Source of the DNA: an uncultured Coriobacteriaceae bacterium
GTDB lineage: Bacteria > Actinomycetota > Coriobacteriia > Anaerosomatales > CAZWGV01
NCBI GenBank assembly: GCA_964633595.1
Contig: CAZWGV010000001.1
Coordinates: 33,083 to 97,082, forward strand
Length of the DNA: 64,000 nucleotides
Reading direction: 5' to 3'
In this document: positions 406 through 15,347 of the stretch, piece by piece
How the letters are laid out: each line of letters begins with the position of its first letter
Numbering within the stretch: position 1 is the first letter of the stretch
Notes under the pieces: model-generated
What the model saw: only the letters and a program-made list of their open reading frames with translations
What the model was told of the DNA's origin: nothing
Databases searched by the model: none
Translations under genes and position numbers: made by a program

Positions 406-2099
406 CGGCGCGCCTCCCCTCCTTTGCCGGGGATCTCCAGTGTGCTCGCCGCCGCTGATGCGACTTCCGCCGGGCCGAGCGGAACGACCTCGAACTCCGC
501 GAGATCCAGGTTGGCCGGGGCTCCGGCCGCCGGGTCGATGCGCACAGCGAGCCCACCTCGTGCGAGCGCGGGGTCGAGACCGCGGGTGCGGGCCACCGTC
601 CACCCGTCGATCTCCAGCGTCGCCTCCAGTCCGTCAACCCGGAACGACACGCCTCTTAGGGATCCTGGTCCTGTGCCGAGGTCGACGTCCGCCTCGGCAA
701 GGGTCACGCGTCTGTTGTCGACGACCTGCTCGATCGAGGCATACCTGGAGCTGATCGTCGCGGCGATGTAGTCGCCTGGGCCTGCACGGCGCGCGACGAA
801 GCTGACCGTATCCCCGGCGCGCAGCGAGAAGCGCGCGCGGATCGCGTAGTCCTGCCACACGCGGCTGCCGTCGAGGAACGCCTCAGCGCGGCGCCGCGTG
901 GAGCGTCCACCGGTCGCCGACGCGAGCGCCCGGCCGTGCGGGGAGGTTGTCAGGACACCCGACGTAAGTGCCCAGCCAGAGGCGCCGAAGCTCGTGCGCT
1001 CCCTGAACGGGAGCTTTTTCGGCCTGCCCTGATCGAGGCGCTTCAGCAGGTCGGTAGCCGACATTCCCGAAGTGATGTAGATGCGCCGGAGCATATCACC
1101 ACGGTCGGAGGGGTAGTTGTAGGACTCGTCGATCGTCACCCCTACCTGCCGGAAGCTCAGCGGATAGATGGACGCGGCTATCGCGGGGAGGCGTTCTCGG
1201 ATCAGAGGGTCGAAGGACAGCGCTCCGTGATCGCCCCACGGGAAGGCGAGCGCGATCACGGGCTCGCCCGTCAGCCGGGCGAGTTCGTTGCGGGCGGTCC
1301 GGAGGTCGGCCGTCACGCGCTCCAGATACTCGTCGTCGCTCTCTAGACGCTCTGCGTCGAGGAGCCATTGCCTCGTTGCTAGCGCGCGATCAGCGTCGCC
1401 CAACGGACCGGCTGGGATGAGCACGTGCGAGTCAGCGGTGTGGGACTGCACGTCCCAGCGTCCGGTGCGAGCCATCATGGCGGTCTCAGGCTCTGTCAGG
1501 TAGAAGGCCTTGCCGGAGTGCGTGTTGGCCAGCACGGAGAACATGCTCGCGTGCATGCCGAGGCGCGCAAGCACTGGGTCAGCGCCGACGAAGCTGTCTG
1601 TCCGGCCGTCGTCGAAGGTGACAAGAACACTCTGCTCGGCCGGTCGCCCCGTCCCTTCGATGAAGGCCCGGAACTCGGCCATCGTGAGTGTCTTGTATCC
1701 GGCGGCCTTCAAGGCGCTCATGTGATCCTGGAACGTCTCCGGCGTCACGTTGCAGTCGGTGCCGTTGGGCTCGATGCCGTGGTAGACGAGCACGGGCAGA
1801 CCGATCGCGGTGCCGCCGGAGTTGGCGACCGGAGTCACCTGCAAGTTTGCGGTCGGGAGCAGGACCCGAGTGAACTGCCACGGACGGATGCTGGTGACGA
1901 GGCTCTGACGCGAGTGGAAGGCCCAGAGCGCGAGCCCGAGGGCGGCGAGCACGGCTATTAGCACCACTCGGCGACGCGCGGACTCGCGCGACACGGCGAT
2001 CGCGGCGGCCGGGCCGAGAGTGCTCGACAGGTTCTCGGGCGCTGCGGCTCCGGACGTGCTCGCAGTGGCCCGGCGGCCTGGCCAGCTCGGCAGTCTCAT
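402..2099 (-). CDS. polysaccharide deacetylase (CE4/NodB domain) with N-terminal TM anchor and C-terminal LamG/concanavalin-like domain
   Basis: ORF 402..2153. CE4 motifs VLVTFDDGRTDSF and HTADSH are present, with a TM helix VVLIAVLAALGLALWAF. I placed the start at the internal ATG 2099, which forms an ATGA overlap with the GT2 stop. Confidence 0.8.
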   Translation of the reverse strand: MRLPSWPGRRATASTSGAAAPENLSSTLGPAAAIAVSRESARRRVVLIAVLAALGLALWAFHSRQSLVTSIRPWQFTRVLLPTANLQVTPVANSGGTAIGLPVLVYHGIEPNGTDCNVTPETFQDHMSALKAAGYKTLTMAEFRAFIEGTGRPAEQSVLVTFDDGRTDSFVGADPVLARLGMHASMFSVLANTHSGKAFYLTEPETAMMARTGRWDVQSHTADSHVLIPAGPLGDADRALATRQWLLDAERLESDDEYLERVTADLRTARNELARLTGEPVIALAFPWGDHGALSFDPLIRERLPAIAASIYPLSFRQVGVTIDESYNYPSDRGDMLRRIYITSGMSATDLLKRLDQGRPKKLPFRERTSFGASGWALTSGVLTTSPHGRALASATGGRSTRRRAEAFLDGSRVWQDYAIRARFSLRAGDTVSFVARRAGPGDYIAATISSRYASIEQVVDNRRVTLAEADVDLGTGPGSLRGVSFRVDGLEATLEIDGWTVARTRGLDPALARGGLAVRIDPAAGAPANLDLAEFEVVPLGPAEVASAAASTLEIPGKGGEARR

Positions 2100-3475
2100 C
2101 GCGTCCCCCACCTCCCGTCGCGCAGGGTGAGGACCGCTGCCGGAAGCTGCCACACGAGGATGATGGTGGAAAGCCCGGCGAACATGAGCCCGAAGAGCCA
2201 GTCCCTGTCCTTGGTGTGCACGTAGTAGTAGAAGCCGTAGATCATCGCCATGATCCCGACTCCGAACATGTATGGGAGAGGCGGGTGCTGCAGTGTGAGA
2301 GGTATCCAGAGGAGGCAGCGCGCGACCACGGCGGGCGAGACGAGCGGCAGTATGAGGCCGGCGTAGAACGAGGCGGCCATGACCGGGTTACGGCGCCACA
2401 TGAAGGTAGCCGCGATGAGGCTCTCGCGCACCCACGACTTCTTCCAGCGCATCTGTTGGCGCAAGAAGACGCTCCAGTTGTCGGGCACCACGGTGCTGGA
2501 GAGCGCGTCGGGCATGTAGACCGTCCGATAACCCAGCCGGAGCAGGTGGTTCGTGAGGCTGCGGTCGTCGCCATAGGTGCACTGGACGCCAAGGAATCTC
2601 TGCGTGCGCCACTTCTCGAGCACTTCCTCCAGAGAAGAGCGGCGATAGGCCGAGCAGCAGCCGGAACAGCACGTCACTGACCCGAATACCGCCTCGGCGG
2701 CCTTGTAGACGTTGAACGCGATGTAGTAGCGGACGTGCTGCATCTTGGTGAGCAGGTTGGTGTCCTTGTTGTGCACTCGCGCGTGACCCGCCGCGGCCGC
2801 CACGCGCGGGTCGCCGAAGTAGCGCACTAGCTTGTGCACGGACCCCTGCTCCAGGAAGCTGTCCGAGTCCACCATCACCACGATCTCGCCGCCGGTCTGC
2901 CGAACTCCCTCGGCCATGGCCTCGCGCTTGCCCCGGTTCACCTGCCAGTCGATGACCACCGTCCTGATGCCGGCCGCGCGCGAGATGAGCGCGCCCTCGC
3001 GGATCTCGGCGAGGCTGTCGTCGTCGGAGCCGTCGTTGATGACGCAGACGTCCATGAGGTGGCGCGGATAGCCGACGGCCAGGAGATTCAGCATCGTGCG
3101 CTGGATGTTGTCCTGTTCATTCTTGCAAGGGATCACGAACGAGACCGATGGCAGGCTGCCGGCCCCTGGGACCTCCTTGGGCGTCACGTGGAGATACGAC
3201 AGCAGGAACCGCGAGAGGATGTAGGTGGACACCAGCAGGCTGTAGAGGCCGAACACGGGACCTTCGGGAAGTTGACGCAGAGTCACGAGCTTCACGGCGA
3301 GGACGACGTATACGAGGAAGAAGAACGCCGACCAGCATCCGTAGTCGCGCAACCGGCCAAAGGTACCTGTGAATGGAGCGCCCGGTTCACGAGAGGTGGG
3401 CGAGGAGTGACCGAGGAGCGGTCCGAAGATCCTCCTGCGGTGTGCGTTCTGCGGCGTAGTGTTGCGAGTAGACAC
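2096..3475 (-). CDS. processive family-2 glycosyltransferase (HasA/NodC/chitin-synthase-like)
   Basis: 459-aa ORF with multiple TM helices flanking a GT2 core. Motifs seen: VIPCKNEQ, INDGSDD, VDSDS, and QQMRWKKSWVRES (the QxxRW processivity motif, closest in form to hyaluronan/chitooligosaccharide synthases). Confidence 0.85.
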   Translation of the reverse strand: MSTRNTTPQNAHRRRIFGPLLGHSSPTSREPGAPFTGTFGRLRDYGCWSAFFFLVYVVLAVKLVTLRQLPEGPVFGLYSLLVSTYILSRFLLSYLHVTPKEVPGAGSLPSVSFVIPCKNEQDNIQRTMLNLLAVGYPRHLMDVCVINDGSDDDSLAEIREGALISRAAGIRTVVIDWQVNRGKREAMAEGVRQTGGEIVVMVDSDSFLEQGSVHKLVRYFGDPRVAAAAGHARVHNKDTNLLTKMQHVRYYIAFNVYKAAEAVFGSVTCCSGCCSAYRRSSLEEVLEKWRTQRFLGVQCTYGDDRSLTNHLLRLGYRTVYMPDALSSTVVPDNWSVFLRQQMRWKKSWVRESLIAATFMWRRNPVMAASFYAGLILPLVSPAVVARCLLWIPLTLQHPPLPYMFGVGIMAMIYGFYYYVHTKDRDWLFGLMFAGLSTIILVWQLPAAVLTLRDGRWGTR

Positions 3476-4181: not shown

Positions 4182-5404
4182 GGGACACGCTCGCCGACAC
4201 GATGCGCGATTACCTGCGCGAACTCACCGAGCATCCTGATCGGCACGTAGGCGGGCCGGGCAACCGGGCCGCTACCAGGATGTTCGCCCAGCGCCTTACC
4301 GGGCTGAACTTCGACGTGACCATCGAGCCGTTCGACTGCGTGGAGTGGGAGTACGGGAGCGCTTCGCTGCGAGTCGCAGGCCAGCACGTACCGCTGCACG
4401 TCGGCCCCTACTCTCTCCCGTGCGATCTTAGCGCGCGCCTCGTCGCTGCTTCGACCGTGGACGAGATCGAGAGCGAGTCCGTTCGGGGCGCCGTGCTTCT
4501 CCTTCACGGGGAGGTGGCCTCGGGCCAGTTCATGCCGAGGAACTTCACGTTCTACAACCCGGAGAGCCACAAGCGCGTCTATCGCGCCCTCGACACCTAC
4601 TTGCCGGCCGCCGTGATCGCGGCCACGGGCACCGATCCGCAGCTCGTTGGCGGCCAGTACCCGTTCCCTCTATTCGAGGACGGCGACCTGGACATCCCCA
4701 ATGCGTACCTGAAAGACGCGGAGGGCGAGAAGCTGCTCCGGCACGCGGGTGAGGATGTGGCCGTGCGCATCGTGTCCAGACGGGTACCCGCCACCGCCGA
4801 CCACGTGGTGGCGAGACTGCACGGCGAGATTCCCGGACACATCGTCGTGTTCGCTCACATCGACAGCCGGAAGGGATCCCCCGGTGCGCTCGACAACGCG
4901 AGCGGAGTTGCCGCGCTGCTCGGCATAGCGCATCTGCTCGCCGAGCGTCGCGAGGAAGCGCGGCTCGGCCCGTCGATCGAGATCGTGCCCCTGAACGGCG
5001 AGGACAACTACGCCAACCCCGGCGAGATGCTGTGGTTCGAGGCGAATCGGGAGCGTGCGGACGACATCATCCTGGGCATCAACGTCGACGATGCCGGACT
5101 CGTGGGCGACGACACCCACGTTTCACTCTACGACGTTCCCGAGGAGCTGCGGCGGACCGCACTCGACGCGATCGCCCGCAGACGCGACTTCGCCGAGGGA
5201 CCACCTTGGGTACAGGGCGACCACGCGATGTTGGGCATCTTGGGGAAGCCCGCGATCGCGGTGGCGTCGGCCGGGATGGGGCGCTTCATGGCCGAGTACG
5301 CGCATACCGCGCGCGACACGGCTGACCTGGCCGATCCGGGCAAGATCGCCGAAGTGGCGAGGTTTCTCGCTGACGTCGTGACGCGTATCGGCCAACGAGC
5401 CTGA
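4178..5404 (+). CDS. M28 family metallopeptidase/aminopeptidase
   Basis: 408-aa ORF carrying VVFAHIDSRKGSPGALDNASGVAALLGIAHLL, the M28 zinc-ligand region. Confidence 0.7.
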   Translation: MRDTLADTMRDYLRELTEHPDRHVGGPGNRAATRMFAQRLTGLNFDVTIEPFDCVEWEYGSASLRVAGQHVPLHVGPYSLPCDLSARLVAASTVDEIESESVRGAVLLLHGEVASGQFMPRNFTFYNPESHKRVYRALDTYLPAAVIAATGTDPQLVGGQYPFPLFEDGDLDIPNAYLKDAEGEKLLRHAGEDVAVRIVSRRVPATADHVVARLHGEIPGHIVVFAHIDSRKGSPGALDNASGVAALLGIAHLLAERREEARLGPSIEIVPLNGEDNYANPGEMLWFEANRERADDIILGINVDDAGLVGDDTHVSLYDVPEELRRTALDAIARRRDFAEGPPWVQGDHAMLGILGKPAIAVASAGMGRFMAEYAHTARDTADLADPGKIAEVARFLADVVTRIGQRA

Positions 5405-5440
5405 CGCGTCTCGGCCCGCAGGGGCTCACTCCCTGGTGAC

Positions 5441-6037
5441 TTGCGCACGCAACGATCGCGCTCTAACGTAGGGCGCAGACACCCATCTCTCAAGGCCGGA
5501 GGAATCATGTGCGCTAGCGATGAAGCGACCATGGCAGAGGGGGGCCTGTCGATCCCCTCGGCCTCCTCGTCCTGTTCGGACACGACTCATGGGCCCAAGA
5601 CCCAGCTGTCCTTCTGTCGCCTCGTCTATCACCTGGAGCGTCAGCGGCGGCTGTTCTACGATCGCCTTCTGGAGCAGCACGGCATCGGGGCGCCACACGT
5701 GCCCGTCTTGGCGCTGCTCTGGCACGACCACGGTCGCGATACCCAGGCCACCCTGGCCGAGGAGCTCGGGGTGGACCCCGCGACCATCACTCGATGCCTC
5801 ACTCGCATCGAGCAACTCGGCTACGTCACGCGAGACATCTCAGCTCGGGATACCAGGGCGTACCTGGTCAAACTCACGGAGCCCGGTCGAGACGCCGCTC
5901 GTGCAGCAGTGAGGGCGAGTGGTGCCTGGAACGAGACGCTCGTCACCGGCTGGCCCGACGCACGACGCCGCGAGGCGCTGGTGGCCATGAGCGACATGCT
6001 CGCCAATGCGCGGCGCAGTCACCTCGAGGGCGACTAG
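5441..6037 (+). CDS. MarR family transcriptional regulator
   Basis: Winged-helix region TLAEELGVDPATITRCLTRIEQLGYVTRDISARDTRAYLVKLTEPG. The true start is probably an internal Met, since the N-terminal 40 aa are atypical. Confidence 0.7.
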   Translation: MRTQRSRSNVGRRHPSLKAGGIMCASDEATMAEGGLSIPSASSSCSDTTHGPKTQLSFCRLVYHLERQRRLFYDRLLEQHGIGAPHVPVLALLWHDHGRDTQATLAEELGVDPATITRCLTRIEQLGYVTRDISARDTRAYLVKLTEPGRDAARAAVRASGAWNETLVTGWPDARRREALVAMSDMLANARRSHLEGD

Positions 6038-6278
6038 CCGCAGGTCGCTTCTCTGATGGCCGCTGGGCCGGAAGCGGCCAGCTCCCTCCATCACCCGATC
6101 GCGGCGAGCTAACCGCGGTGACCCTCGGGTGCGTCGTGAATCCCCAGGATGGGCATGATGCCTGATAGCGGGGGTGTGCGCACTATCGCTGCGTGGCACT
6201 CTCATTGCTCACTCGGTGCCGAGTCCATGCGCCAACAGCCTCAAACGTACGCCCAGGTTGCTCGGATGGGAGCTCTGT

Positions 6279-7037
6279 ATGACCGAGCCGCAGACGCCCG
6301 AAGAAGAGCGCGCCCCTGCCCGTGTGTGGGAATCGCTGCAAGACCCCCTCACTCGCAAGCTTGCCTACGCGAGCGCGGTGGTCCTCTTGTTGTGGTTGCT
6401 GAGCTTCGCTGCCGCGATGATCATTGGTGTGCTGCGGCCCGCAGTCCCCAGGACGTCCACAGAGCGTGCCTTGATGGTCTACGAGGGCCAGGTGAACTCG
6501 GGCGAGGCGGACCTCAGAGTATGGGCTGCGTACATCAGAGCGCTCATAGGCGCGAAGCAGTACTCGGATGCCGAATCGGCTATCGAGCGCGCTTTGGCGA
6601 GCGCTCCCGAGGAGAGATCGACCATCCTCGTCGAGCGTGCACGACTGAGCTTCTCGCGCGGCGACTACGCGCAGGCGGTCGAGGTATGCGACGAGACGCT
6701 AGCGGCTGTTGAGGCTGAGCTCAGGGAGAGGGAATCGGTCACTCCGGCGAGCCAGCTACCGACTGAGAGCGTATTGCCAGAAGCGTACGGGCCGGCCCTG
6801 CTGATCAAAGCCGACTCGCTGCGAGAGCTGGGGGACGCGCAGAGGGCGCTGGAGACGTACGACACATACCTCGAAAGGTGGCCGACCGCCGCTGACGTGC
6901 TCGTTCGCCGCGGCGACATCAAGGCGTTGATCGGCGACGAGTCCGGCGCCGAGGACGACTACCGCAAAGCGCTCTCCTTCGGCGACTATGAGCCGGCGAA
7001 GGAAGGGCTCGAGCGGATAGGAGCTGATCCGCGATGA
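6279..7037 (+). CDS. membrane-anchored TPR repeat protein
   Basis: ATG 6279 is preceded by GGGAG. One TM helix (AVVLLLWLLSFAAAMIIGVL) is followed by TPR-like helical repeats (AESAIERALASAP.., GDYAQAVEVCDETL.., GDAQRALETYDTYL.., AEDDYRKALSF). The stop overlaps the NHL gene start (ATGA). Confidence 0.7.
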   Translation: MTEPQTPEEERAPARVWESLQDPLTRKLAYASAVVLLLWLLSFAAAMIIGVLRPAVPRTSTERALMVYEGQVNSGEADLRVWAAYIRALIGAKQYSDAESAIERALASAPEERSTILVERARLSFSRGDYAQAVEVCDETLAAVEAELRERESVTPASQLPTESVLPEAYGPALLIKADSLRELGDAQRALETYDTYLERWPTAADVLVRRGDIKALIGDESGAEDDYRKALSFGDYEPAKEGLERIGADPR

Positions 7038-8359
7038 GCGCCCGGCAGCAGGACAGCAGGGCATCGCGCACCAGGCGCGGGCTCGCCGCGGTGCTCGCAC
7101 TCCTCCTCGTTCTCCTCGCCGCCACTTCCCTCTACCTGATAGGAGTTGTGCGTCCGCCAGGGTCGGAGGACATCGAGAGATCGGCGCGCGCCGGGAATCT
7201 CGAGTGGGTCCGCTCTATCTACGGATTCGGCTCCACTCAGGAGGAGCAGCTCAACGCCCCCAACGACGTCGCTGTCGGGCCCGAGGGCACGATCTGGGTT
7301 GCAGATCAGGCCAGGGCGCGGGTACTGGGGTTCGGGCCCGACGGATCCTACGAAACCGTGTTGCACAGAGGCCCCAGGGGCTCTTCAGAGGACGCACTGG
7401 CCTTCCCGGCCTCGCTCGCGGTGGATGAGGATGGGCTCATCTACATAGGAGACATGATGAAGGACAGGGTCGTCGTCATGTCTCGCGACAACGAGATCCT
7501 GCGGGAGTACTACGTTCCGGGTCCTCTCTCGGTGGACGTGCGAGGGGATCGCATCGTCGCCGGATCAGCGGCGGGCTTCGTCATCTTCGACAAGCAGGGA
7601 GAGGTCGTCCGGCTCGTCGGCACCAGGGGGCAGGGTGACGGGCAGTTCGACGGTGTGCGGGGTGTGGCTATCGCGCCCGACGGCGCCATCTTCGTAGTCG
7701 ATCAGTACAACAACCGCATCAGCGCGTACGACTCCGAGGGCGAGCGCCTTTGGATGAGGGAAACCGGTATCCCGGCGAACAGGTCGCGGATGGCCGAGGG
7801 TGAGACCTCCTTCGAGACTACCGCCGAGGCCGGACTGATCCTGCCCGCTCGGATCGAGGTGGACGGCTCGGGACGCCTCGTGATCGTGGACCCGTTCGAT
7901 TTCTCGATCGCCGTCCTTGATGCGGAGGATGGCAGCCTGATCGCCAAGCACGGTACCTATGGGGGCACCGACGGGCAGTTCCTGTATCCAACGGGCATCG
8001 CGTTCGACCCTGGACGCGACTGGTTCGTCGTTGCTGACACCGGGAACAGCAGGGTGCAGATAGTGCGTATCTCGGGATCGGGTGGTAGCGCGACTGCAGT
8101 GGTCAGCCGTACCCTCGCCGGGCCCTTGAGCGCGTGCGCCCTCCCTCTGTCTGGGCTGGTTCTGTTGGTGGCCTTGATCCTGCTGGTGCGAGCCATGCGA
8201 AGTCGAAGAGGCTCGCGAGGCGGTGAGGCCCCCGCTGATCGCGACTCTGCGGTCGTGGTCGGGGACTCGGGTGCGGTCACGGAACCCAGCGAGAAGGCCG
8301 ACGTAACGCAGGGTCAGGACTCCTCCGTCGACGTGTCGGCGGATGGCGGGGACGAGTAG
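7034..8359 (+). CDS. NHL-repeat six-bladed beta-propeller protein with N- and C-terminal TM helices
   Basis: Six NHL-like blades are visible (VAVGPEGTIWVADQARARVLGF, LAVDEDGLIYIGDMMKDRVVVM, GVAIAPDGAIFVVDQYNNRISAY, IEVDGSGRLVIVDPFDFSIAVL, GIAFDPGRDWFVVADTGNSRVQIV). N-terminal TM LAAVLALLLVLLAATSLYLIGVV, C-terminal TM LSGLVLLVALILLV, and an acidic tail. Confidence 0.85.
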   Translation: MSARQQDSRASRTRRGLAAVLALLLVLLAATSLYLIGVVRPPGSEDIERSARAGNLEWVRSIYGFGSTQEEQLNAPNDVAVGPEGTIWVADQARARVLGFGPDGSYETVLHRGPRGSSEDALAFPASLAVDEDGLIYIGDMMKDRVVVMSRDNEILREYYVPGPLSVDVRGDRIVAGSAAGFVIFDKQGEVVRLVGTRGQGDGQFDGVRGVAIAPDGAIFVVDQYNNRISAYDSEGERLWMRETGIPANRSRMAEGETSFETTAEAGLILPARIEVDGSGRLVIVDPFDFSIAVLDAEDGSLIAKHGTYGGTDGQFLYPTGIAFDPGRDWFVVADTGNSRVQIVRISGSGGSATAVVSRTLAGPLSACALPLSGLVLLVALILLVRAMRSRRGSRGGEAPADRDSAVVVGDSGAVTEPSEKADVTQGQDSSVDVSADGGDE

Positions 8360-8428
8360 CAGTCCCGCCGCCCCGATCGGGATCAGCGCGACCCGTCAAT
8401 CTGCGTTAAGGATGGCACACCATTCGCA

Positions 8429-8434
8429 TATACT
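8429..8434 (+). promoter_or_regulatory. candidate -10 element TATACT (would give a leader of roughly 375 nt for the hexahaem cytochrome gene)
   Basis: The hexamer with its context (TATACTCCT) recurs just upstream of ffs (56943) and dnaX (57111). No experimental support. Confidence 0.3.
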
Positions 8435-8814
8435 CCTATGCCCGACTGAATAGGCGTCAGTGGGTAGAAACACAGCGGTACGAGTTCGGATCGTTGATAT
8501 GGAGGATGCAAGGCCGAGATCGGTGAGTCCGGCTGGGCCACGGAAAACCTCCAGCTAGAGAGCGCAATCTGTACTCCGCGGTCGCAGTACGACGGTACCC
8601 GTCGTCCCGGTGCGCGGACCTGGCTAGGCACCTCCCTGCATAGCGGTCCGCCTGCAACCAAACCAGAACGCATATGCATACCGGCGCTCTCACAAGAACG
8701 GAACGTTGCGACCGCAAGAATCGCCGGTGATGCGGATCTCAGGAAGGAGGGACGGCCGTGATCGGGAGAGCGCATCAGCAGGACCCAAGGAAGACCAGAA
8801 CTGAAGGAGGCAAG

Positions 8815-9924
8815 ATGAAGAAGACCTTGTTCGTAACCATCCTGGCCACAGTATTCGTGCTCGCCTTCGCATCGAGCGCGTTTGCCGGGAAGTCGTCCGT
8901 GATGGTTCGCTCGGGTGACACGACCGTGACCGCGCCGATCGCGACGTACAACGACTGGTCCGGTACGTCCACCACGACCGCATTCGCGAACTTCCCCGGC
9001 AACGCTGGATCGACCTCACCGCACGGCGGATACGCCACTGCGACGGTGAAGTGCGCCGTTTGTCACGCGGCTCACGTGGCGGCTCCCTCGGGTGACACCC
9101 TGCTGCGTATGAAGGCCTCGGACTCGTGCGTCTACTGCCATGTAGCTACTGGTTCGAGCGTCCCTGGTGCGGTGGTGTACGGCGGTGACGCTGCCATCGC
9201 AACGGCGTCCGGCGACGATCACCACACCATCGGTAGCAACTGCAGCATCTGCCATGCGTCGGTTCACGGATCGAATGCGATCAAGAACATCCCGTCGCTA
9301 ACGGGCGTCCTTCTGAAGTCGGATTCGAACAACACCGCCGTGGATCTGCCAGCTATGGCGAACTTGCTCGACACGAGCGGGGCGCTGGCCACACGTCTGA
9401 CGACCGTGAACGACACGGCCACCCGTCGGGCAGCCATCGGCATCTGGTGCGGTACGTGCCATAACAATGCGTACTTCGTAACGAAGGCCAGCCAGAACGC
9501 GGCCTTCCAGTGGTCCTCCGGCACTGGCTGGACGTTGCGTACCGGCAGTGCTGCCAGGACGGGTCACCGGGTTGAAGCGGTGGCCAATGACGACTGGAAC
9601 GTAGGCAACAGCGTCTCCTCCAGCACTAAGGTGACCGGTCGCGTGGCCTGGGCACCTGCGACCGATTGCTGGTCGTGTCACGATGCCAAGAACGGTCTCA
9701 CTGGCGCATCTGAGGCTCCGGGCTTCCCGCACTACTCCCCCGGCGCCGGAAGGTTCCTCACCGCGGCTGGTGACGTCACTGGGCCCAAGACCAACGTTGG
9801 CGCTGTGACGTACGCTGCTGGTGGCGGAGACGGTGGACACTTGCGCTACTACACGCTGAAGGATGGCGTGTGCCTGAAGTGCCACAAGGGTTCGGCAACG
9901 ACAGGTGTGGGCTACAACTACTAG
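8815..9924 (+). CDS. secreted hexahaem c-type cytochrome
   Basis: ATG 8815 is preceded by GGAGG. Sec signal MKKTLFVTILATVFVLAFASSAFA/GK. Six CxxCH sites: CAVCH, CVYCH, CSICH, CGTCH, CWSCH, CLKCH. Eight additional His are available as distal ligands. The sequence is Gly/Thr/Ser/Ala-rich. Confidence 0.9.
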   Translation: MKKTLFVTILATVFVLAFASSAFAGKSSVMVRSGDTTVTAPIATYNDWSGTSTTTAFANFPGNAGSTSPHGGYATATVKCAVCHAAHVAAPSGDTLLRMKASDSCVYCHVATGSSVPGAVVYGGDAAIATASGDDHHTIGSNCSICHASVHGSNAIKNIPSLTGVLLKSDSNNTAVDLPAMANLLDTSGALATRLTTVNDTATRRAAIGIWCGTCHNNAYFVTKASQNAAFQWSSGTGWTLRTGSAARTGHRVEAVANDDWNVGNSVSSSTKVTGRVAWAPATDCWSCHDAKNGLTGASEAPGFPHYSPGAGRFLTAAGDVTGPKTNVGAVTYAAGGGDGGHLRYYTLKDGVCLKCHKGSATTGVGYNY

Positions 9925-9962
9925 TATCCGAGACTGACGGCCTTTGGCCGAACTGATGGCTA

Positions 9963-9990
9963 CAGGGCCGGCTCTCGAGAGCCGGCCCTG
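9963..9990 (+). terminator. perfect GC-rich palindromic hairpin downstream of the hexahaem gene
   Basis: cagggccggctctcgagagccggccctg is a 13-bp perfect inverted repeat lying 39 nt after the stop. There is no clear T-tract, which is common in high-GC genomes. Confidence 0.55.
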
Positions 9991-10144
9991 TGCGCATGCA
10001 CAGGCCCCGGCTTCGGTCTCGCCTGGTGTCGATGTACGCGGGATCGGTCGAACTGTGTCACGTGGTCAACGTGCGCACTGGCTGGGAACATATGGTATGG
10101 CGTCACCGGCCTGACCGGCGGCCTATCCTGAGGAAACCGAGACG

Positions 10145-11113
10145 GTGCAGCGACACTTCTACATCGGGCTCACCCGGTTGCTCCCCGTGGGGCTTGCCGT
10201 GGCAGCACTCGTTGCGCTTTTCGCTGTGGGCGTGACGGCAGCTACGCTGCCCGCCTGCACCTCTTGCCACGGGTCCGACCCGCTTGCCGAAGAGACCGAG
10301 GCCAGCAGCCACTCCGAGATACGGTGTGTTCGATGCCATGTCGCACCGGGGGTGGCGTCTCGCCTGACCTTCGGCTCGAGGCAGCTGTTTGGAATGACGC
10401 TCAGATTCGTGCCAGTTGGGGGGAGGGCGATCGCGAGCGTTCCGGACGCGACTTGCCTCTCATGCCACGAGCAAGTGCTCGGTGAGGTCTCGAGCTCGAA
10501 GGGCCTCAGGATCGCGCACGTCACATGCGCTGTGGGGCGTACCTGCGGTGACTGCCACTCCGGCACTGCGCATGGGTCTGCTGTCGCCTGGCTCAGGATC
10601 GCCGAGATGGAGAAGTGCCTCGAGTGTCATGGGACGGGCGAAGTATCCGCTGACTGCGGCAAGTGCCACGACCCCAGGACGCAGCGAGAACGTCTCGGCG
10701 TAGGCGCGTGGCGCGTCACACACGGGGCCGAGTGGGAGACCACTCACGGCATGGGCAACTCGGACACGTGCGCAGCGTGCCATCCCAGTAACTACTGCGC
10801 TCGCTGCCACGGCATCGATCTCCCCCATGAAGCCGGTTTCCTCGAGAGCCACGGGCAGACCGCGAAGGAGTCGCCGAGTTCGTGCGGCACGTGTCATCGC
10901 CGGAACTTCTGCGACGATTGCCATGGTCTCGAGATGCCTCACCCGGCGGAGTTCACGCCTGCTCACTCTGCTATTGCCAGCGGGACTGCGGATGTCGTCT
11001 GCGCCACCTGTCACGTCGCCAGTGACTGCAGCGGCTGCCATGTGAAGCATGTCCACCCGGGCGGAGCTATCGGAGGCGCTCCCGCCGGGACTCTCCCCGG
11101 GGGCGGTCTGTGA
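10145..11113 (+). CDS. membrane-anchored dodecahaem c-type cytochrome (NapC/NirT/NrfH-like N-terminal module)
   Basis: GTG start. N-terminal TM LLPVGLAVAALVALFAVGV. Twelve CxxCH sites in 322 aa: CTSCH, CVRCH, CLSCH, CGDCH, CLECH, CGKCH, CAACH, CARCH, CGTCH, CDDCH, CATCH, CSGCH. Confidence 0.9.
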   Translation: MQRHFYIGLTRLLPVGLAVAALVALFAVGVTAATLPACTSCHGSDPLAEETEASSHSEIRCVRCHVAPGVASRLTFGSRQLFGMTLRFVPVGGRAIASVPDATCLSCHEQVLGEVSSSKGLRIAHVTCAVGRTCGDCHSGTAHGSAVAWLRIAEMEKCLECHGTGEVSADCGKCHDPRTQRERLGVGAWRVTHGAEWETTHGMGNSDTCAACHPSNYCARCHGIDLPHEAGFLESHGQTAKESPSSCGTCHRRNFCDDCHGLEMPHPAEFTPAHSAIASGTADVVCATCHVASDCSGCHVKHVHPGGAIGGAPAGTLPGGGL

Positions 11114-12324
11114 TGATCGCTGCCCAAGTTGCGGACATCTCGCAAGTACTCCAGTCGATCCCGGAGATCATTCGTGATCCCGGGGCCGACCCGCGAGCCA
11201 CGGCCGCCCTGCTGGTGGCTGCGGTACTAGTGGCACTCATCATCGCTGTGACCGTGGCTCTGCTCCTTGTTGGCCCATCCGACCAGGAGGAAGAGGGGGC
11301 TGAGGGGGGTGAGATAAGCGAGGAAGACGAAGTGGGCGGATCTCCCGCGCCAGGGGCCGAGGGGCGGCCACGAACTCCCGCCCGGACCAGAATCGTTGGC
11401 ATTGCCGTAGTGGTGACGCTGCTCGCGGTGGTGGCCTGGGCCGCAACCGGGATCGCAACAGGCACGCGGTCGGTGTGCTTGTCGTGCCACGAGAGCAATC
11501 CGCACGCGGGTTCCGCTGCCGTAGACCCCCACGCGGACGTGGCCTGCGTTCGGTGCCACGAAGTCGGGGACGCGGTGACCCTCGCCGTGTTCACGCTCCC
11601 CGATAGAGCCGCCCACTTCCTGGCTGGTGTGAGCGAGACGGGGGCGGCCGCTGGTTACGGGCACCCGATCTCATCACTGGCATGCGAGGCCTGCCACGAG
11701 GGTTCCTTGGACAGCCCGTCGACGAGCGAGCGCACAGGGGTGCGCATGTCGCACGCGGAGCCGCTGGACGCGGGGTCGGAGTGTATCGATTGCCATGCTC
11801 TAAGGTCGGGAGTCGTGTCGTTAGCGAATGTCGGCATGACACCGTGTCTACGCTGTCACGATGGAGTAGCTGCCTCGGCGGAGTGCGAGACGTGTCACAC
11901 CAGAGACCCGTCGCTGGCCATCGCTTCAACCGAGCCAACGGCGGGCACTCTCGCCAAGGTTCAAGTGCCCCTGCCGCAGTGCGATGGATGCCACGTTCAG
12001 GAAGAGGAGGGGTGCGACGACTGCCACGGGATTAGGCTGCCGCACACGCGCGAGTTCGTTCAGTACGCGCACGCGCGGCCAGCGGTCATCGATATCTGGG
12101 ACGGGGGAGGCATCGCATGCGTCAGGTGTCACTACCCAGGTCGTCGAGACTGCAGTGAGTGCCACGACCCCTTCCCCTCTCACGGGTACTCTTGGGAGAC
12201 CGAGCACGGCATCGGAGTACGTTTCACTGCCGAGTGCGGCTGTCATAAGTTCAAGGCATACGCCGCCGAGAGGCAGTTCTGCGAGATCTGTCACGACACC
12301 GAGCCTCCAGGCACGCTCCGCTAG
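11110..12324 (+). CDS. membrane-anchored undecahaem c-type cytochrome (paralogue of the preceding gene)
   Basis: The start (GTG 11110 or ATG 11113) overlaps the preceding stop. Two TM helices flank an acidic low-complexity loop. Eleven CxxCH sites: CLSCH, CVRCH, CEACH, CIDCH, CLRCH, CETCH, CDGCH, CDDCH, CVRCH, CSECH, CEICH. Confidence 0.9.
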   Translation: MMIAAQVADISQVLQSIPEIIRDPGADPRATAALLVAAVLVALIIAVTVALLLVGPSDQEEEGAEGGEISEEDEVGGSPAPGAEGRPRTPARTRIVGIAVVVTLLAVVAWAATGIATGTRSVCLSCHESNPHAGSAAVDPHADVACVRCHEVGDAVTLAVFTLPDRAAHFLAGVSETGAAAGYGHPISSLACEACHEGSLDSPSTSERTGVRMSHAEPLDAGSECIDCHALRSGVVSLANVGMTPCLRCHDGVAASAECETCHTRDPSLAIASTEPTAGTLAKVQVPLPQCDGCHVQEEEGCDDCHGIRLPHTREFVQYAHARPAVIDIWDGGGIACVRCHYPGRRDCSECHDPFPSHGYSWETEHGIGVRFTAECGCHKFKAYAAERQFCEICHDTEPPGTLR

Positions 12325-12472
12325 GGTGCGGGTGACGCTCGGCCAGGGCGTCCGGACCTGCATCCCAAACGGCACACCGTCGCCGCCTGGCGCCCGGTCG
12401 CGGTGGTAGTGCCTCGGGTTCGTCGGGAATGGATGCCTCGGCGAACGACACGGCCGAGGGAGGTTGGACCTG

Positions 12473-13231
12473 ATGGCGGAGGTTGAGGCAAGGTTTCGCA
12501 GACTTCGTCTCTACAACGTGGTGATGGGGTTGTTCCACGCGGCGCAAGGTGTCGCGATCCTCGCGCTCGCGACAGACTTCACGCTGCCGGTGACCGCGAG
12601 CTTCCTGGAGGGCCCGCCGGGTACACCCGCCGAAACTACCGTGCTCTTCGACCTGAGCATCGCCTGGGGCGTCGCGGCGTTCGTGTTCCTTTCGGCGATA
12701 GCGCACTTCCTAATCGCCTCCCCGGGTGTGTTCGGCTGGTACGTTGCCAACTTGCGGCGGAACCGCAACTACGCGCGCTGGATCGAGTACTCGCTGAGCT
12801 CGTCGGTCATGGTGGTGCTAATAGCGCTGCTGCCGGGCATTTCGGATGTCGCCGCCCTGGCTGCCATCTTCGGCGTCAACGCCTCCATGATCCTGTTCGG
12901 GCTGCTGCAGGAGCACTACGAGGATCCGGGCAGCGGTCACTGGCTGCCCTTCTTCTTCGGCTGTATTGCAGGGCTGGTGCCGTGGATAGGGGTCGGTATC
13001 TACATGTGGAGCCCGACGACCGATGCCACGCCGCCCGAGTTCGTGATCGCGATCTTCGTGAGCATCTTCCTGTTCTTCAACAGCTTCGCGCTCAACCAGT
13101 GGCTCCAGTACAAGCGCGTGGGACCGTGGCGCGACTATCTGTTCGGCGAGAGTACCTACATCCTGCTGAGCCTTGTAGCGAAGTCCGCTCTCGCGTGGCA
13201 GGTGTTTGGCGGAACGCTGACGCCCCAGTAG
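12473..13231 (+). CDS. heliorhodopsin (7-TM retinal protein)
   Basis: Long near-identical blocks to the prototype heliorhodopsin 48C12 as I recall it: FHAAQG.AILALA.DF, WIEYSLSSSVMVVLIA (counter-ion Glu), IFGVNASMILFG, FFGCIAGLVPWIG, LFFNSFAL, YILLSLVAKSALAWQ (Schiff-base Lys). ATG 12473 sits about 9 nt after GAGGGAGG; the ORF track opens at TTG 12464. Confidence 0.9.
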   Translation: MAEVEARFRRLRLYNVVMGLFHAAQGVAILALATDFTLPVTASFLEGPPGTPAETTVLFDLSIAWGVAAFVFLSAIAHFLIASPGVFGWYVANLRRNRNYARWIEYSLSSSVMVVLIALLPGISDVAALAAIFGVNASMILFGLLQEHYEDPGSGHWLPFFFGCIAGLVPWIGVGIYMWSPTTDATPPEFVIAIFVSIFLFFNSFALNQWLQYKRVGPWRDYLFGESTYILLSLVAKSALAWQVFGGTLTPQ

Positions 13232-13261
13232 AGCCGCAGGGCAACCTGTGAGGAGGTTCTC

Positions 13262-13654
13262 ATGGCGACGAAGGGCGTGAAGAACCCCGACCTGATACCC
13301 CTCTTCAAGAGCGCCAAGAAGCTCCTGGAACCCTACGCGAAGCGTCTCTCGGTTCGGCGGGACGAGCCAGGCTACTACGACCTCTGGTCGGACAAGGAGG
13401 TAGAGATCGCGGGGCGCAAGCGCAAGGACGTCTTCTTCGCGAGCCTGATCATCCAGAAGAGCTACGTCGGCTTCTACTACATGCCGGTATACACGCACCA
13501 GGAGGCCAGGGAGTTCTTCGGCCCCGAGTTGCTCGCGCTGCTCAAGGGCAAGTCCTGCTTCTACCTGAAGGAGCTCACGCCCGAGATCCGTCGTCAGATG
13601 ACGCGCGCCTTGAAGGAGGGGTTCAACCTCTACAAAGAGCGCGGTTGGGTCTAG
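13262..13654 (+). CDS. small soluble protein, DUF1801/YdhG-like (tentative)
   Basis: 130-aa ORF starting 30 nt after the heliorhodopsin stop, with GAGGAGG as RBS. VFFASLIIQKSYVGFYYMPVY resembles the DUF1801 core. The family assignment comes from memory only. Confidence 0.45.
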   Translation: MATKGVKNPDLIPLFKSAKKLLEPYAKRLSVRRDEPGYYDLWSDKEVEIAGRKRKDVFFASLIIQKSYVGFYYMPVYTHQEAREFFGPELLALLKGKSCFYLKELTPEIRRQMTRALKEGFNLYKERGWV

Positions 13655-13666
13655 GCCCGTCCCCGC

Positions 13667-14443
13667 CTACTCAGCGTAGATGGTTCCCTCGGGCGCACCA
13701 CCGCTGCACGCGATCGTGTACTGCCCCGGCTCGAGAGCCGGGAGCTTGACGGTGCCACCATTCGTGATGTCTTGGGTGATGCCGAGGTCGGGGAAGACCA
13801 CGCCAACACGGCACTCCGTGCCCGGGCCGAAGACGATCTCAACTGGCACGCCGCTCTTCACGCGTATGAGGTTGGGCCGAAAGCCCCCTTCGTCGACTAT
13901 CTCGATGCGCTGCACCTTGCCGTCCGCCGACAGCTTGGCGGCGGTGGCATCTTCGCGAGCAGGCGCAACGTAGCCCACCTCCACCAGCTTCTTCCTGATG
14001 GGCTCGGGATTGATGGACGCCGAGTCGTACGCGACGGTGAGCTCGAGCGTTGATGTATCGAGGGAGGCCTTCCCGATTCCCACGAGCTGCGTGAGCGCCT
14101 CGAACATGTGAGTCGCCTCATGGGCGGCGTCGCCGTTCTCTATGAGTCGCGTCTGGAATGTCGTCTCCGAATCGGTCGAGACGACCGCGATGGTCTGCGT
14201 GATCACGTTGTCGGCAGTTGTCCGCTCGCCAGGCTGCGACGAGAGCAGCTGGGGGACGGTGAAGGCGGCCACAAGCAGCGCGATGGCGCCGAAGATGACG
14301 TGCTTCGGCTTGATGCGCGGAGCGGGGGGTGGCTCCTCGACGCCCGTCGGCTCCTCAGCGGCCTGCTCCTCGGTGACCTGCTCCTCGACGCCCGTCGGCT
14401 TCTCAGCGGCCTGCTCCTCGGTGATCTCGTTCTCGTCGACCAT
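13667..14443 (-). CDS. membrane-anchored protein with HMA-like (no CxxC) and C-terminal cupredoxin-like domains
   Basis: ATG 14443 with AGGAG RBS; the longer 367-aa ORF would overlap azlC. Acidic 16-aa tandem repeat, TM helix HVIFGAIALLVAAFTV, then a beta-rich C-terminus (RIEIVDEGGFRPNLIRVKSGVPVEIVF...GQYTIACSGGAPEGTIYAE) typical of cupredoxin_1-type domains. Confidence 0.6.
   Translation of the reverse strand: MVDENEITEEQAAEKPTGVEEQVTEEQAAEEPTGVEEPPPAPRIKPKHVIFGAIALLVAAFTVPQLLSSQPGERTTADNVITQTIAVVSTDSETTFQTRLIENGDAAHEATHMFEALTQLVGIGKASLDTSTLELTVAYDSASINPEPIRKKLVEVGYVAPAREDATAAKLSADGKVQRIEIVDEGGFRPNLIRVKSGVPVEIVFGPGTECRVGVVFPDLGITQDITNGGTVKLPALEPGQYTIACSGGAPEGTIYAE
14333..14428. repeat. 48-bp in-frame tandem duplication (2 copies, about 3 mismatches)
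   Basis: ctcctcgacgcccgtcggct[c/t]ctcagcggcctgctcctcggtga[c/t]ct.. occurs at 14333-14380 and 14381-14428. It encodes EEQAAE(K/E)PTGVEE.. in the cupredoxin-domain gene. Confidence 0.85.
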
Positions 14444-14657
14444 GCTCACTCCTGATCGCCTGCTATGCGTTGGGCTATCTCGACGTGCCCTCTTGGGGCA
14501 GTTGAGCATGGAGTATGGCATATCCCCGCCCGGTTGCGGGGGAAGTGCCTGTGTCACCGGACCGCTCGCACATGTGCGACCATGACCGATACCCGCCGTA
14601 TCCGGCAGACTTGGCTTGGTGGAGCGCCTCACTTGTGGAGGACCTGGGAGAGCCGTG

Positions 14658-15347
14658 ATGGGTCGAAAGCGTGCCAGCTTCCTCGCAGGGATGCGGGACA
14701 TCGCCCCGCTCGTGCCGGCTGGCATCGCCGTGGGGCTGGTTGTGGGAGCCGCAGTTGCCGAGGTAGGCATGGGCCTGCCCGAGTCGGTGGGGATGTCGGT
14801 ATTCGTTTACGGGGCGTCCGCCCAGCTCGCGGCGACCCTCCTGTGGGGCCAAGGCGCTCCGCTCCTGGTCACGGTCGGCACGGCCCTAGTGATCAACGCT
14901 CGGTTCTTCATCTACAGCGCGTCGCTTGCGCCGCTGCTCGATCCGCCGACGACACGTTCGGCTGTCGCGCAGGGCTACTTGATCCGTGATGCGGCATACG
15001 CGGCCACAGTCTCGCGTGCCCTGCGCGATCCGGAGATGGACAAGACTGCCTACTACACTGGGGCGTCACTGCTCGACTGGCTGGTCTGGCTCGTGGGAAC
15101 CTCGGCGGGCGCGCTTGGCGCCTCTTTGCTGCCGGCGTCGTGGTCGCTCGACTTCATGGTGCCCCTGGTTTTCGTTGGTCTGCTCGTGGGCGCGGTTCAC
15201 GGTCGCGCTTCTGCCGAGGCGGCGGTTGTGGCCGCTGTCGGCTCCACGATCCTGGTTCCACTCCTGCCGATGAGAGCGGGTCTTCTCGCGGCGATCGCAC
15301 TAGGCATGGTCTGGGGCTTCGTAAGGCAGGAGGAGGTCGGACGTTGA
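14658..15347 (+). CDS. azlC: AzlC family branched-chain amino acid transport protein
   Basis: Polytopic membrane ORF with the N-terminal FLAGMRDIAPLVPAGIAVGLVVG pattern typical of AzlC, followed by a coupled azlD. The start is uncertain (14616 or 14658). Confidence 0.7.
   Translation: MGRKRASFLAGMRDIAPLVPAGIAVGLVVGAAVAEVGMGLPESVGMSVFVYGASAQLAATLLWGQGAPLLVTVGTALVINARFFIYSASLAPLLDPPTTRSAVAQGYLIRDAAYAATVSRALRDPEMDKTAYYTGASLLDWLVWLVGTSAGALGASLLPASWSLDFMVPLVFVGLLVGAVHGRASAEAAVVAAVGSTILVPLLPMRAGLLAAIALGMVWGFVRQEEVGR

Follow-up and report, generated by a model that had tools for sequence, protein, structure and literature searches.

A conserved five-gene multihaem cytochrome module as a candidate electron conduit across the cell envelope of Coriobacteriia

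We describe a module of five genes, encoding a tetratricopeptide repeat (TPR) protein, an NHL-repeat propeller protein and three multihaem c-type cytochromes, in a 64-kb stretch of DNA from an uncultured Coriobacteriaceae bacterium (contig CAZWGV010000001.1; this whole stretch is hereafter called the window, and all coordinates are positions within it). We think it probable that the module, which belongs to a lineage of the Coriobacteriia, forms a conduit through the cell envelope along which electrons pass between the membrane and the exterior of the cell. To our knowledge, Thermincola, Carboxydothermus and a few other Firmicutes are the only monoderm bacteria for which electron transfer across the thick wall is understood even in outline, and there is no molecular model for the Actinomycetota; the module provides a compact and conserved five-gene candidate for this function in an actinomycetotal wall. 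The lineage that carries it (Coriobacteriia, OPB41/Anaerosomatales and relatives) occurs widely in the subsurface and shared dominance of an electromethanogenic cathode, and because cultured carriers exist the hypothesis is directly testable. The five genes (window 6279-12324; Table 1) run in one direction in the order TPR, NHL, cyt6, cyt12, cyt11, where the last three denote the genes for a hexahaem protein and for proteins with 12 and 11 CxxCH sites. An earlier reading of the window, made from its letters alone (the sequence-only reading), had described five co-directional genes with ATGA and GTGA couplings, and our reading of open reading frames (ORFs) and motifs agrees with it.

A motif scan places 6, 12 and 11 CxxCH sites in cyt6, cyt12 and cyt11, respectively, or 29 together; since six-frame translation of the entire window yields 30 such sites, their clustering in three genes is far beyond chance. 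The 29 haems of the sequence-only reading thus stand as a recount of CxxCH motifs, and are probably one short of the true number: cyt11 has in addition a CxCH site (CGCH) which aligns with CxxCH sites, so that the module probably holds 30 haems. Both cysteines and the histidine of this site are 100% conserved, roughly half of 39 orthologues have a canonical CxxCH aligned with it, and in an alignment of the two proteins it pairs with a CAACH site of cyt12. It is most likely a twelfth haem site, judging from these alignments, with a thioether linkage that may be strained or single, and may be a kind of one-residue-spacer or single-thioether site that is perhaps undescribed; we found no use of 'CXCH' as the name of a haem motif in the literature searched. 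As had also been stated from the sequence, the window contains no CxxCK (NrfA-type) site, and no nap, nrf, hao or molybdopterin enzyme is encoded among the 38 other window genes that we scanned with Pfam, some 12 small ORFs having been left unscanned.

The five genes are kept together in relatives. We compared the five window proteins, by tblastn and by blastp at the level of ORFs, with homologous loci fetched from relatives' genomes (numbered with an L below; numbers with a P denote protein relatives of cyt6). A scan of one genome per species gave 76 loci, nearly all labelled as Coriobacteriia, Actinomycetes or Actinomycetota metagenome-assembled genomes (MAGs) and one of them from Coriobacteriaceae bacterium EMTCatB1; all five genes occur together at 43 loci, almost all of which carry Coriobacteriia or Actinomycetota MAG labels. 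An NHL gene lies directly 5′ of cyt6 in 63 of 81 assessable cases, a TPR gene lies 5′ of the NHL gene that adjoins cyt6 in 50 of 61, and a cyt12-cyt11 pair follows within 3.5 kb downstream in 41 of 65. The TPR and NHL genes do therefore stay with the cytochromes in relatives, a point on which the sequence-only reading had staked its interpretation. Orthologues of cyt6 keep mostly six CxxCH sites, and 4-nt gene overlaps of the ATGA and GTGA types recur across relatives. At some loci cyt6 is tandemly duplicated, and at others the cyt12-cyt11 pair is inverted as one block; where cyt12 and cyt11 are inverted or replaced, the TPR-NHL-cyt6 trio remains contiguous and co-directional, and it has itself been duplicated as a unit, with a second copy in L082 and L018. 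We also note a variant module (L015, L039, L053, L059 and L067) in which the trio is followed, in place of cyt12 and cyt11, by the gene for a giant NHL-repeat protein (978-1740 aa); L039, L059 and L067 have in addition a short NrfH-like gene on the opposite strand, directly downstream of cyt6.

The first two proteins of the module would be held in the membrane with their interaction domains outside the cell. For the TPR protein we prefer the start given in Table 1 to the GTG upstream of it, because orthologues are 245-290 aa long. The protein matches the Pfam models TPR_16 (9e-13; 48.9 bits against a cut-off of 32.7), TPR_14 (40.9 bits against 23.5) and TPR_2 (38.4 against 27); hydropathy indicates a single N-terminal transmembrane (TM) helix, which is also the number found in 51 of 52 orthologues, and lysine and arginine are richer before this helix than after it, so the TPR domain is predicted to face outwards from the distribution of charge. 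The orthologue in EMTCatB1 (1d0123) is labelled 'nrfG, FOG: TPR repeat', a generic COG name. We considered and set aside the possibility that the TPR protein is an apocytochrome or haem-lyase chaperone of the NrfG/CcmI type, there being no NrfG or CcmI model among its NCBIfam and Pfam matches, and no haem lyase or maturation gene was seen near its gene among the window genes scanned. The NHL protein matches the Pfam NHL model (1.8e-20; 72.3 bits against a cut-off of 20), six blades are apparent on inspection of its sequence, and its best matches in the Protein Data Bank (PDB) are six-bladed propellers, namely TRIM-NHL (6d69_A, 6.8e-31), TRIM71 (1e-26) and PknD (1rwi_B, 9e-9). Hydropathy places TM helices at residues 20-38 and 367-385, the second followed by an acidic cytoplasmic tail; 58 of 63 orthologues likewise have two TM helices, whose cytoplasmic flanks are positively charged, and this charge distribution predicts a propeller outside the cell with both termini inside.

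The product of cyt6 appears to be the secreted member of the module. Its ATG (8815) is preceded by the ribosome-binding site (RBS) GAAGGAGG, and an alternative GTG start at 8758 has a strong Shine-Dalgarno RBS of its own; in many homologues the MKK of the signal peptide is preceded by some 19 further conserved residues (MKEMI..NTTNQG..), so that some members of the family may truly have the longer form. From hydropathy and motifs we read a cleavable Sec signal peptide, cut between AFA and G, and a motif scan found no lipobox, no LPXTG and no other membrane or wall anchor. Beyond the CxxCH motifs there are exactly six distal histidines (H70, H87, H137, H151, H251 and H306) that are at least 98% conserved in 58 orthologues, from which all six haems are predicted to be bis-His, with no sign of an open catalytic haem. 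The C-terminal tail, DGxCLKCH...GVGxx[YF], is likewise conserved.

The closest relative of cyt6 in the PDB is MtrA (6r2q_A, whose PDB file carries a wrong label; 8e-6, improving to 1.6e-7 when a profile is used), the similarity lying in a block CxxCHxxH...CxxCH...CxxCHxxxHG at cyt6 residues 92-173 that aligns with MtrA 248-324; the other significant relatives are cytochrome subunits of photosynthetic reaction centres and OcwA of Thermincola (6i5b, 3e-3). We do not place cyt6 in the MtrA/DmsE decahaem family, with which it shares one local module: it has 6 haems instead of 10 and about 57 residues per haem against about 33, it has no porin partner, and it scores 27.6 bits with TIGR03508, the cut-off of which is 192.2. 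Six CxxCH sites in a secreted protein of this size would suit the OmcS/CwcA type (about 350-430 aa), but we place cyt6 outside that family because no sequence homology to OmcS was detected: neither OmcS nor OmcZ was matched at E <= 10, with phmmer or with a profile of 35 sequences run against all PDB sequences, and the E value for OmcE (7tfs), 2.5, is not significant. An AlphaFold2 (AF2) model from an alignment of 116 sequences has a pLDDT of 77.5 and found no PDB match with Foldseek; an earlier model from 35 sequences (pLDDT 50) was unusable.

There are 146 relatives of cyt6 in a collection of proteins clustered at 90%, the few named ones being labelled Coriobacteriia, and a cyt6 profile run against 1.84 billion representatives recovered 527 relatives at E <= 1e-10, of which 202 reach E <= 1e-30. 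Several larger proteins (800-1574 aa) carry a cyt6-like domain as their C-terminal module, placed after bacterial Ig-like domains and further cytochrome modules, an architecture typical of surface or extracellular proteins. Such fusions include P0337, P0347, P0372, P0248, P0335, P0340, P0351 and P0365, with Big_13, Big_7 or Big_5 domains; in P0337 it is an S8 subtilase, accompanied by a fervidolysin prodomain and a MAM domain, that precedes the cyt6-like domain. Among the module proteins cyt6 diverges fastest: orthologues share a median of 30.5% identity with the window protein, compared with 41-42% for the NHL protein and cyt12, and the figure is lower than that of cyt12 in 42 of 43 loci. This rate of divergence fits a protein that is exposed.

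The remaining two cytochromes are anchored in the membrane; across the three cytochromes the Pfam matches are to Cytochrome_C7 and Cytochrom_NNT. cyt12 consists of an N-terminal TM helix, a tetrahaem head resembling NrfH and NapC, and four di-haem units of the form CxxCH-x5-9-CxxCH; from hydropathy and charge distribution it has one TM helix, with the N terminus inside and the haem domain outside. It has 12 CxxCH sites in 52 of 55 orthologues and 8-11 in the other three, and for its 12 haems there are 11 invariant extra histidines together with M84, M155 and M264. In cyt11, hydrophobic segments lie at 36-54 and 95-113 (36 of 43 orthologues have two TM helices), and the matching charge pattern predicts that the N terminus is outside, the loop inside and the haem domain outside; orthologues mostly have 9-12 CxxCH sites, with six or seven invariant extra histidines and one conserved methionine. 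The two proteins are 30% identical (E = 1e-18) and, on this similarity, are paralogues in which everything after the head consists of repeated di-haem units. Residues 19-121 of cyt12 align with residues 21-133 of NrfH (2j7a_C) at E = 1.7e-7, and cyt11 is related to the same chain at E = 5e-4. Both thus share with NrfH, NapC and CymA an N-terminal membrane anchor joined to a homologous tetrahaem module, and Cytochrom_NNT (PF03264) recognizes them with 24.8 bits (cyt12) and 25.1 bits (cyt11) against a cut-off of 24.1. They differ from typical members of the NapC/NirT/NrfH family, which have four haems only and a catalytic partner next to them, in having 12 sites (11 plus one in cyt11) and no NrfA or NapAB that could dock, and from NrfH itself in scoring 31.6 and 28.4 bits with the equivalog model TIGR03153, the cut-off of which is 134.2; at the first haem the CxxCHxM motif is replaced by CTSCHGS in cyt12 and CLSCHES in cyt11. 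That the five genes are kept together, and that every one of their products is exported or is anchored in the membrane with a domain outside, argues for a conduit, as do the lack of a catalytic haem signature, the NrfH-like heads of cyt12 and cyt11 and the fact that the nearest relatives of cyt6, MtrA and OcwA, are proteins of extracellular electron transfer (EET).

Further support comes from the way in which the module is expressed. The gap of 455 nt that precedes cyt6 and a hairpin that follows it indicate that the module has three expression units: TPR-NHL, cyt6 and cyt12-cyt11. When the gap is aligned with relatives, only a block next to the RBS, TCTC(A/G)G(G/A)AAGGAGG, is conserved; the gap contains no match to the sigma-70 consensus and none to Rfam, which had no match anywhere in 5000-13500. 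The hairpin, with a perfect core stem of 13 GC-rich base pairs closed by a GAGA loop, begins about 30 nt downstream of the cyt6 stop codon. Folding of 9915-10150 gives z = -3.16, and the best 45-nt hairpin has -33.8 kcal/mol; a scan for promoters and terminators had missed the structure because it has no U-tract, and folding revealed it. Of 83 cyt6 genes, 78% have a hairpin at least as strong as -25 kcal/mol within 120 nt of the stop codon, as compared with 2% of TPR, 11% of NHL, 0% of cyt12 and 16% of cyt11 genes, and since the stems differ in sequence from locus to locus it is the structure that is conserved. This hairpin is likely to be an internal terminator or a stabilizer of the mRNA.

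Transcripts of an orthologous module are available from EMTCatB1, one of the two dominant organisms on a thermophilic electromethanogenic biocathode (PMC7943316). The order of genes at its locus (L031) is leuC, a gene for a 645-aa membrane protein, TPR, NHL, the hexahaem, 12-haem and 11-haem cytochrome genes, leuD and leuB, which corresponds one to one with the published tags 1d0121 (leuC), 1d0122-0124 (hypothetical, TPR and hypothetical), 1d0125-127 (multihaem cytochromes), 1d0128 (leuD) and 1d0129 (leuB); the matching leuC, leuD and leuB on the flanks fix the identity of the module. In closed circuit the cyt6 orthologue (1d0125) reaches 10917 transcripts per million (TPM), which makes it the top cytochrome and seventh among all coding sequences (PMC7943316 Table S5), and its level drops about 2.5-fold, to 3942 TPM with bromoethanesulfonate and 4287 TPM in open circuit (PMC7943316). 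The other four genes of the module stand at 270, 152, 100 and 86 TPM (PMC7943316), so that cyt6 exceeds its four partners 40-125-fold, as it does in every condition. We attribute this excess to the strong conserved hairpin after cyt6, which probably sets its stoichiometry, and the numbers indicate that cyt6 is made in bulk, like the product of the major subunit gene of a pilus operon. High transcription of the cyt6 orthologue on a cathode, a hairpin found at cyt6 only, fast divergence and fusion to Ig-like domains together point to a conduit in which cyt6 is the outward component.

On this basis we propose the following arrangement. The translationally coupled cyt12 and cyt11 would pair and would exchange electrons with menaquinol or with a membrane dehydrogenase, and their chain of about 24 haems could carry electrons some 10 nm out from the membrane, where they would be given to cyt6 or received from it. 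Unanchored, abundant and produced from its own transcription unit, cyt6 would fill or cross the peptidoglycan zone and there meet an external partner, which might be a mineral, an electrode, a shuttle or another cell. The NHL propeller, present at a low level on the outer face of the membrane with the coupled TPR protein, would dock, retain, assemble or nucleate cyt6. C-terminal peptides are common ligands of TPR domains, and it is conceivable that the TPR protein binds the conserved tail of cyt6. The data show directly the gene content, the topology signals, the conservation of haems and ligands, the synteny, the hairpin and the transcript ratios of an orthologous module on a cathode; we infer five parts of this scheme, namely the quinol link, the pairing of cyt12 with cyt11, the contact of cyt6 with the NHL and TPR proteins, the direction of flow and the extracellular end point. 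Electrons may in fact flow either way, and the best expression evidence, coming as it does from a cathode, speaks of electron uptake.

Cultured relatives provide a physiological setting for this proposal. In Parvivirga hydrogeniphila, an obligate Fe(III) reducer, there is a cluster described as 'an MtrA homologue and two quinol-oxidising multihaems' (PMC9686372), and the possession by an Fe(III)-reducing isolate of one MtrA-like protein and two multihaem proteins resembling quinol oxidases is a further reason to favour a conduit. We infer that the isolate loci MCK8115470-72 and MCL4078710-12 are the same module as that of the window. P. hydrogeniphila makes pili-like appendages on ferrihydrite only and not on soluble Fe(III) citrate (PMC9686372). 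As a tentative and somewhat doubtful extension of our proposal, cyt6 might be the subunit of a new actinomycetotal family of cytochrome filaments or wall-spanning polymers, unrelated to OmcS, OmcE or OmcZ, which would be nucleated and anchored by the NHL and TPR proteins and fed by cyt12 and cyt11; the appendages induced by ferrihydrite could then be a polymer of cyt6. The sequence-only reading had already named a cytochrome wire as a candidate here, a view that needs qualifying: with no detectable similarity of cyt6 to OmcS, OmcE or OmcZ, the wire is an analogy only.

Several observations weigh against the conduit. The module is known here from sequences and from the transcripts of orthologues alone, and the RNA-seq replicates for 1d0125 are noisy (3108 in CC1 versus 18726 in CC2; PMC7943316). 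The likeness of cyt12 and cyt11 to NrfH is weak, being near the threshold in Pfam and far under the NCBIfam cut-off, with CxxCHxM absent. No cytochrome c maturation gene is present among the 38 window genes scanned with Pfam, an absence that the sequence-only reading had rightly recorded. The same cluster of three cytochromes is reported from Anaerosoma tenue, an organism that does not reduce Fe(III) (PMC9686372), and quinones were not detected in two cultured Anaerosomatales strains (PMC9686372), which weakens the quinol entry step. Of the quinol-to-surface conduit originally suggested, therefore, the envelope conduit remains probable, given the conserved module, its topology and its expression on a cathode, while the quinol step has lost ground.

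It is possible, though in our judgement unlikely, that the electrons never leave the envelope. cyt6 would then act as a carrier pool like the c3-type cytochromes, shuttling within the inner wall zone from an extracytoplasmic hydrogenase or formate dehydrogenase to the membrane, where cyt12 and cyt11 would serve as a cytochrome:quinone oxidoreductase like Qrc, Tmc and Hmc of Desulfovibrio. The transcript level of cyt6 suits such a pool, its haems, like those of c3-type carriers, all look bis-His, EMTCatB1 co-expresses a NiFe hydrogenase and a formate dehydrogenase at a high level, cultured relatives grow on H2 or formate, and an A. tenue that apparently has the cluster without reducing Fe(III) is what one would expect. 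Nevertheless, a monoderm has no outer membrane with which to retain a free 35-kDa protein, and the residues per haem of cyt6 are far above those of c3-type carriers; its fusion to Ig-like surface domains in relatives and its faster evolution than that of its partners sit poorly with a carrier confined to the inner wall, its closest solved relatives are MtrA and OcwA and not c3, and no hydrogenase or formate dehydrogenase gene adjoins the module in the loci that we inspected. That the host is a monoderm, as supposed from the outset, agrees with the Coriobacteriia labels of relatives and with the Gram-positive wall of cultured Anaerosomatales (PMC9686372).

We regard as improbable the idea that the genes share no more than a history of co-location and that the NHL and TPR proteins have an unrelated role in the envelope, for instance in the biogenesis of wall or polysaccharide together with a neighbouring Wzy_C-like protein. 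TPR and NHL are generic interaction domains, a membrane protein of the Wzy_C type is encoded near the module in 31 of 85 sources, and the leucine operon (leuC/leuD/leuB) that houses the module at 37 of 80 loci, the window being an exception, has an unrelated function. Mere co-location is nonetheless improbable, for the trio persists, and is duplicated, as one block, remaining contiguous and co-directional through the rearrangements of cyt12 and cyt11 described above, and NHL genes adjoin extracellular cytochromes in four unrelated lineages. Least probable of all, in our view, is a reductase for a soluble substrate (nitrite, hydroxylamine, sulfite, tetrathionate or polysulfide) in which cyt6 would be catalytic and cyt12 and cyt11 would be its NrfH-type quinol dehydrogenases: the usual partners of such heads are catalytic proteins like NrfA, nitrite reduction is reportedly encoded by EMTCatB1, relatives reduce sulfur compounds and cyt11, with fewer invariant histidines than haem sites, could have one open or unusual haem, but CxxCK is absent and cyt6 has six conserved distal histidines for its six haems, none of the three cytochromes significantly matches NrfA (1oah_A, E = 1.4-4.3 only), HAO, Otr, MccA or SirA, a docked enzyme needs no 12-haem extension on each NrfH head, and a 40-125-fold excess of transcript over the quinol dehydrogenase would be unexpected for a catalytic subunit. 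As the sequence-only reading requires, no nitrite, nitrate, hydroxylamine or sulfite reductase lies beside the module in the homologous loci with annotated neighbours.

As an envelope conduit, the module falls in with the EET systems of monoderm bacteria, in that anchored and secreted multihaem cytochromes, all extracytoplasmic, occur without a catalytic subunit in a Gram-positive lineage. It most readily calls to mind the chain ImdcA, PdcA, CwcA and OcwA of Thermincola potens and T. ferriacetica (PMC7911101), which also operates in a monoderm with low-spin haems and without a catalytic reductase, and in which an anchored multihaem protein is proposed to oxidize quinol and the secreted hexahaem CwcA to bridge the peptidoglycan; cyt6 is weakly similar to OcwA, as noted above. 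CwcA is, however, a homologue of OmcS, to which cyt6 shows no detectable similarity, and has been modelled as a polymer in the peptidoglycan (PMC7911101), and where Thermincola uses a decahaem protein at the membrane the window has a pair of 12-haem paralogues with NrfH-like heads. In the window module we also found neither a separate soluble decahaem nor a terminal reductase like OcwA, and NHL or TPR partners go unmentioned for Thermincola in PMC7911101.

In Geobacter sulfurreducens, as in the window, a secreted hexahaem cytochrome, OmcS, is encoded next to an NHL-repeat protein and a major subunit is made in large excess. Geobacter also has an osc assembly machinery, with the β-propeller OscD among its components. 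The NHL gene that the sequence-only reading placed beside omcS is indeed there: it is GSU2505, which is thought to be needed for the assembly or expression of OmcS (PMC9070056). The two systems differ in that Geobacter is a diderm, in that no similarity of sequence or fold between cyt6 and OmcS was detected, and in that the NHL protein of the window is anchored by TM helices at both ends. A counterpart in composition is found in the monoderm Dethiobacter alkaliphilus, whose clusters 1-Fe-T, 2-Fe-T and 3-Fe-T combine MtrA-like and CymA-like multihaem cytochromes with NHL and TPR repeat proteins (PMC10376724); the authors propose that the repeat proteins aid the secretion and orientation of cytochromes, and cytochromes of these clusters are overexpressed on ferrihydrite or thiosulfate (PMC10376724). 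Dethiobacter is one of the low-GC Bacillota, in contrast to the host of the window, and its clusters, which we compared by description only, are larger and more heterogeneous and include flavoproteins and ABC transporters; no Dethiobacter record was among the 80 best genome matches. Propellers of the NHL type are likewise co-expressed with extracellular multihaem cytochromes, and proposed to stabilize their complexes, in Desulfovibrio ferrophilus IS5 (PMC5815863) and in the Uet cluster of 'Ca. Tenderia electrophaga', where the NHL proteins are UetH and UetI and a TPR/NrfG-like gene is present too; these are diderms with porin or outer-membrane components and unrelated cytochromes, and the Tenderia cluster has its own CcsAB. 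The company that NHL propellers keep with extracellular cytochromes in Geobacter, D. ferrophilus, Tenderia and Dethiobacter is a final reason for reading the module as a conduit, and since NHL and TPR proteins recur with such cytochromes in unrelated bacteria, the module offers a clean system in which to study their role in the biogenesis of nanowires.

The suggestion that no system of this composition had been described must accordingly be given up, in view of the NHL, TPR and multihaem clusters of Dethiobacter (PMC10376724) and of the three cytochromes already noted in Anaerosomatales (PMC9686372). What is new here is the five-gene unit, with its accessory proteins and its expression architecture; the papers on Coriobacteriia (PMC9686372, PMC7943316) had flagged only the cytochromes.

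Table 1. Features of the module and its immediate neighbours (window coordinates)
Feature	Position	Strand	Remarks
TPR protein gene	6279..7037	+	252 aa; alternative GTG start 6174
NHL propeller gene	7034..8359	+	441 aa; start overlaps TPR stop as ATGA
Gap 5′ of cyt6 gene	8360..8814	+	455 nt; presumed own promoter and 5′ leader
cyt6 gene, secreted hexahaem cytochrome c	8815..9924	+	369 aa; 6 CxxCH
GC-rich hairpin 3′ of cyt6	9956..9997	+	core stem 9962-9991
cyt12 gene, membrane-anchored dodecahaem cytochrome	10145..11113	+	322 aa; 12 CxxCH
cyt11 gene, membrane-anchored cytochrome	11110..12324	+	404 aa; 11 CxxCH and one CxCH; GTGA overlap with cyt12
CxCH site in cyt11, residues C376-G-C378-H379	12235..12246	+	probable non-canonical 12th haem site
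MarR-family regulator gene, directly upstream, outside conserved module	5441..6037	+	Pfam MarR_2 9.4e-10
Heliorhodopsin gene, directly downstream, outside conserved module	12464..13231	+	Pfam Heliorhodopsin 1.5e-102

The two genes that flank the module in the window had both been noticed in the sequence-only reading, and Pfam confirms their presence, the heliorhodopsin with a full-length match (342.5 bits; residues 14-252 on profile positions 1-242 of 242). As neighbours they are not kept: no MarR homologue lies near the module at any of 78 loci, and a heliorhodopsin homologue lies near a cyt6 gene at one locus only, L049. This lack of conservation makes them accidental neighbours and rules out either as a functional partner. 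Where the module has been inserted into the leucine operon, it sits between leuC and leuD or between leuD and leuB (L002, L031, L079-L082 and others). The Wzy_C neighbour, a membrane protein of 600-670 aa resembling O-antigen ligases and O-oligosaccharyltransferases, is encoded, for example, at 13417-15441 of L002, 5855-7792 of L031 and 2770-4563 of L082, and is absent from the window. One might speculate, by analogy with the action of PglL/PilO-type enzymes on pilins, that it glycosylates cyt6, which is rich in Ser, Thr and Gly.

Elsewhere in the window, the heliorhodopsin gene is followed by a gene (13262-13654, plus strand) for a 130-aa protein that has no match in Pfam or NCBIfam, and then by a gene on the minus strand (13667-14770) for a 367-aa protein that combines a hydrophobic segment and a weak CopZ/HMA-like stretch with a cupredoxin-like domain at its C terminus, features that could mark it as an extracytoplasmic copper redox protein. 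Two large secreted surface proteins are encoded on the minus strand at 40454-43939 and 44303-46408, one with cadherin-like, PKD and Big_9 domains and the other with SdrD-B and SpaA prealbumin-like domains; a C-terminal LPXTG is lacking in both, and there is one internal LPTSG. Upstream of the module region, on the minus strand at 402-3475, a gene for a GT2 glycosyltransferase like chitin synthase overlaps a polysaccharide deacetylase gene, a pair that looks like one for the synthesis of an exopolysaccharide resembling poly-N-acetylglucosamine (PNAG) or chitin. Lastly, the genes for a radical SAM protein (54010-55011, plus strand) and for a baeRF protein, similar to archaeo-eukaryotic release factors (55008-56186, minus strand), overlap by 4 nt at their 3′ ends.

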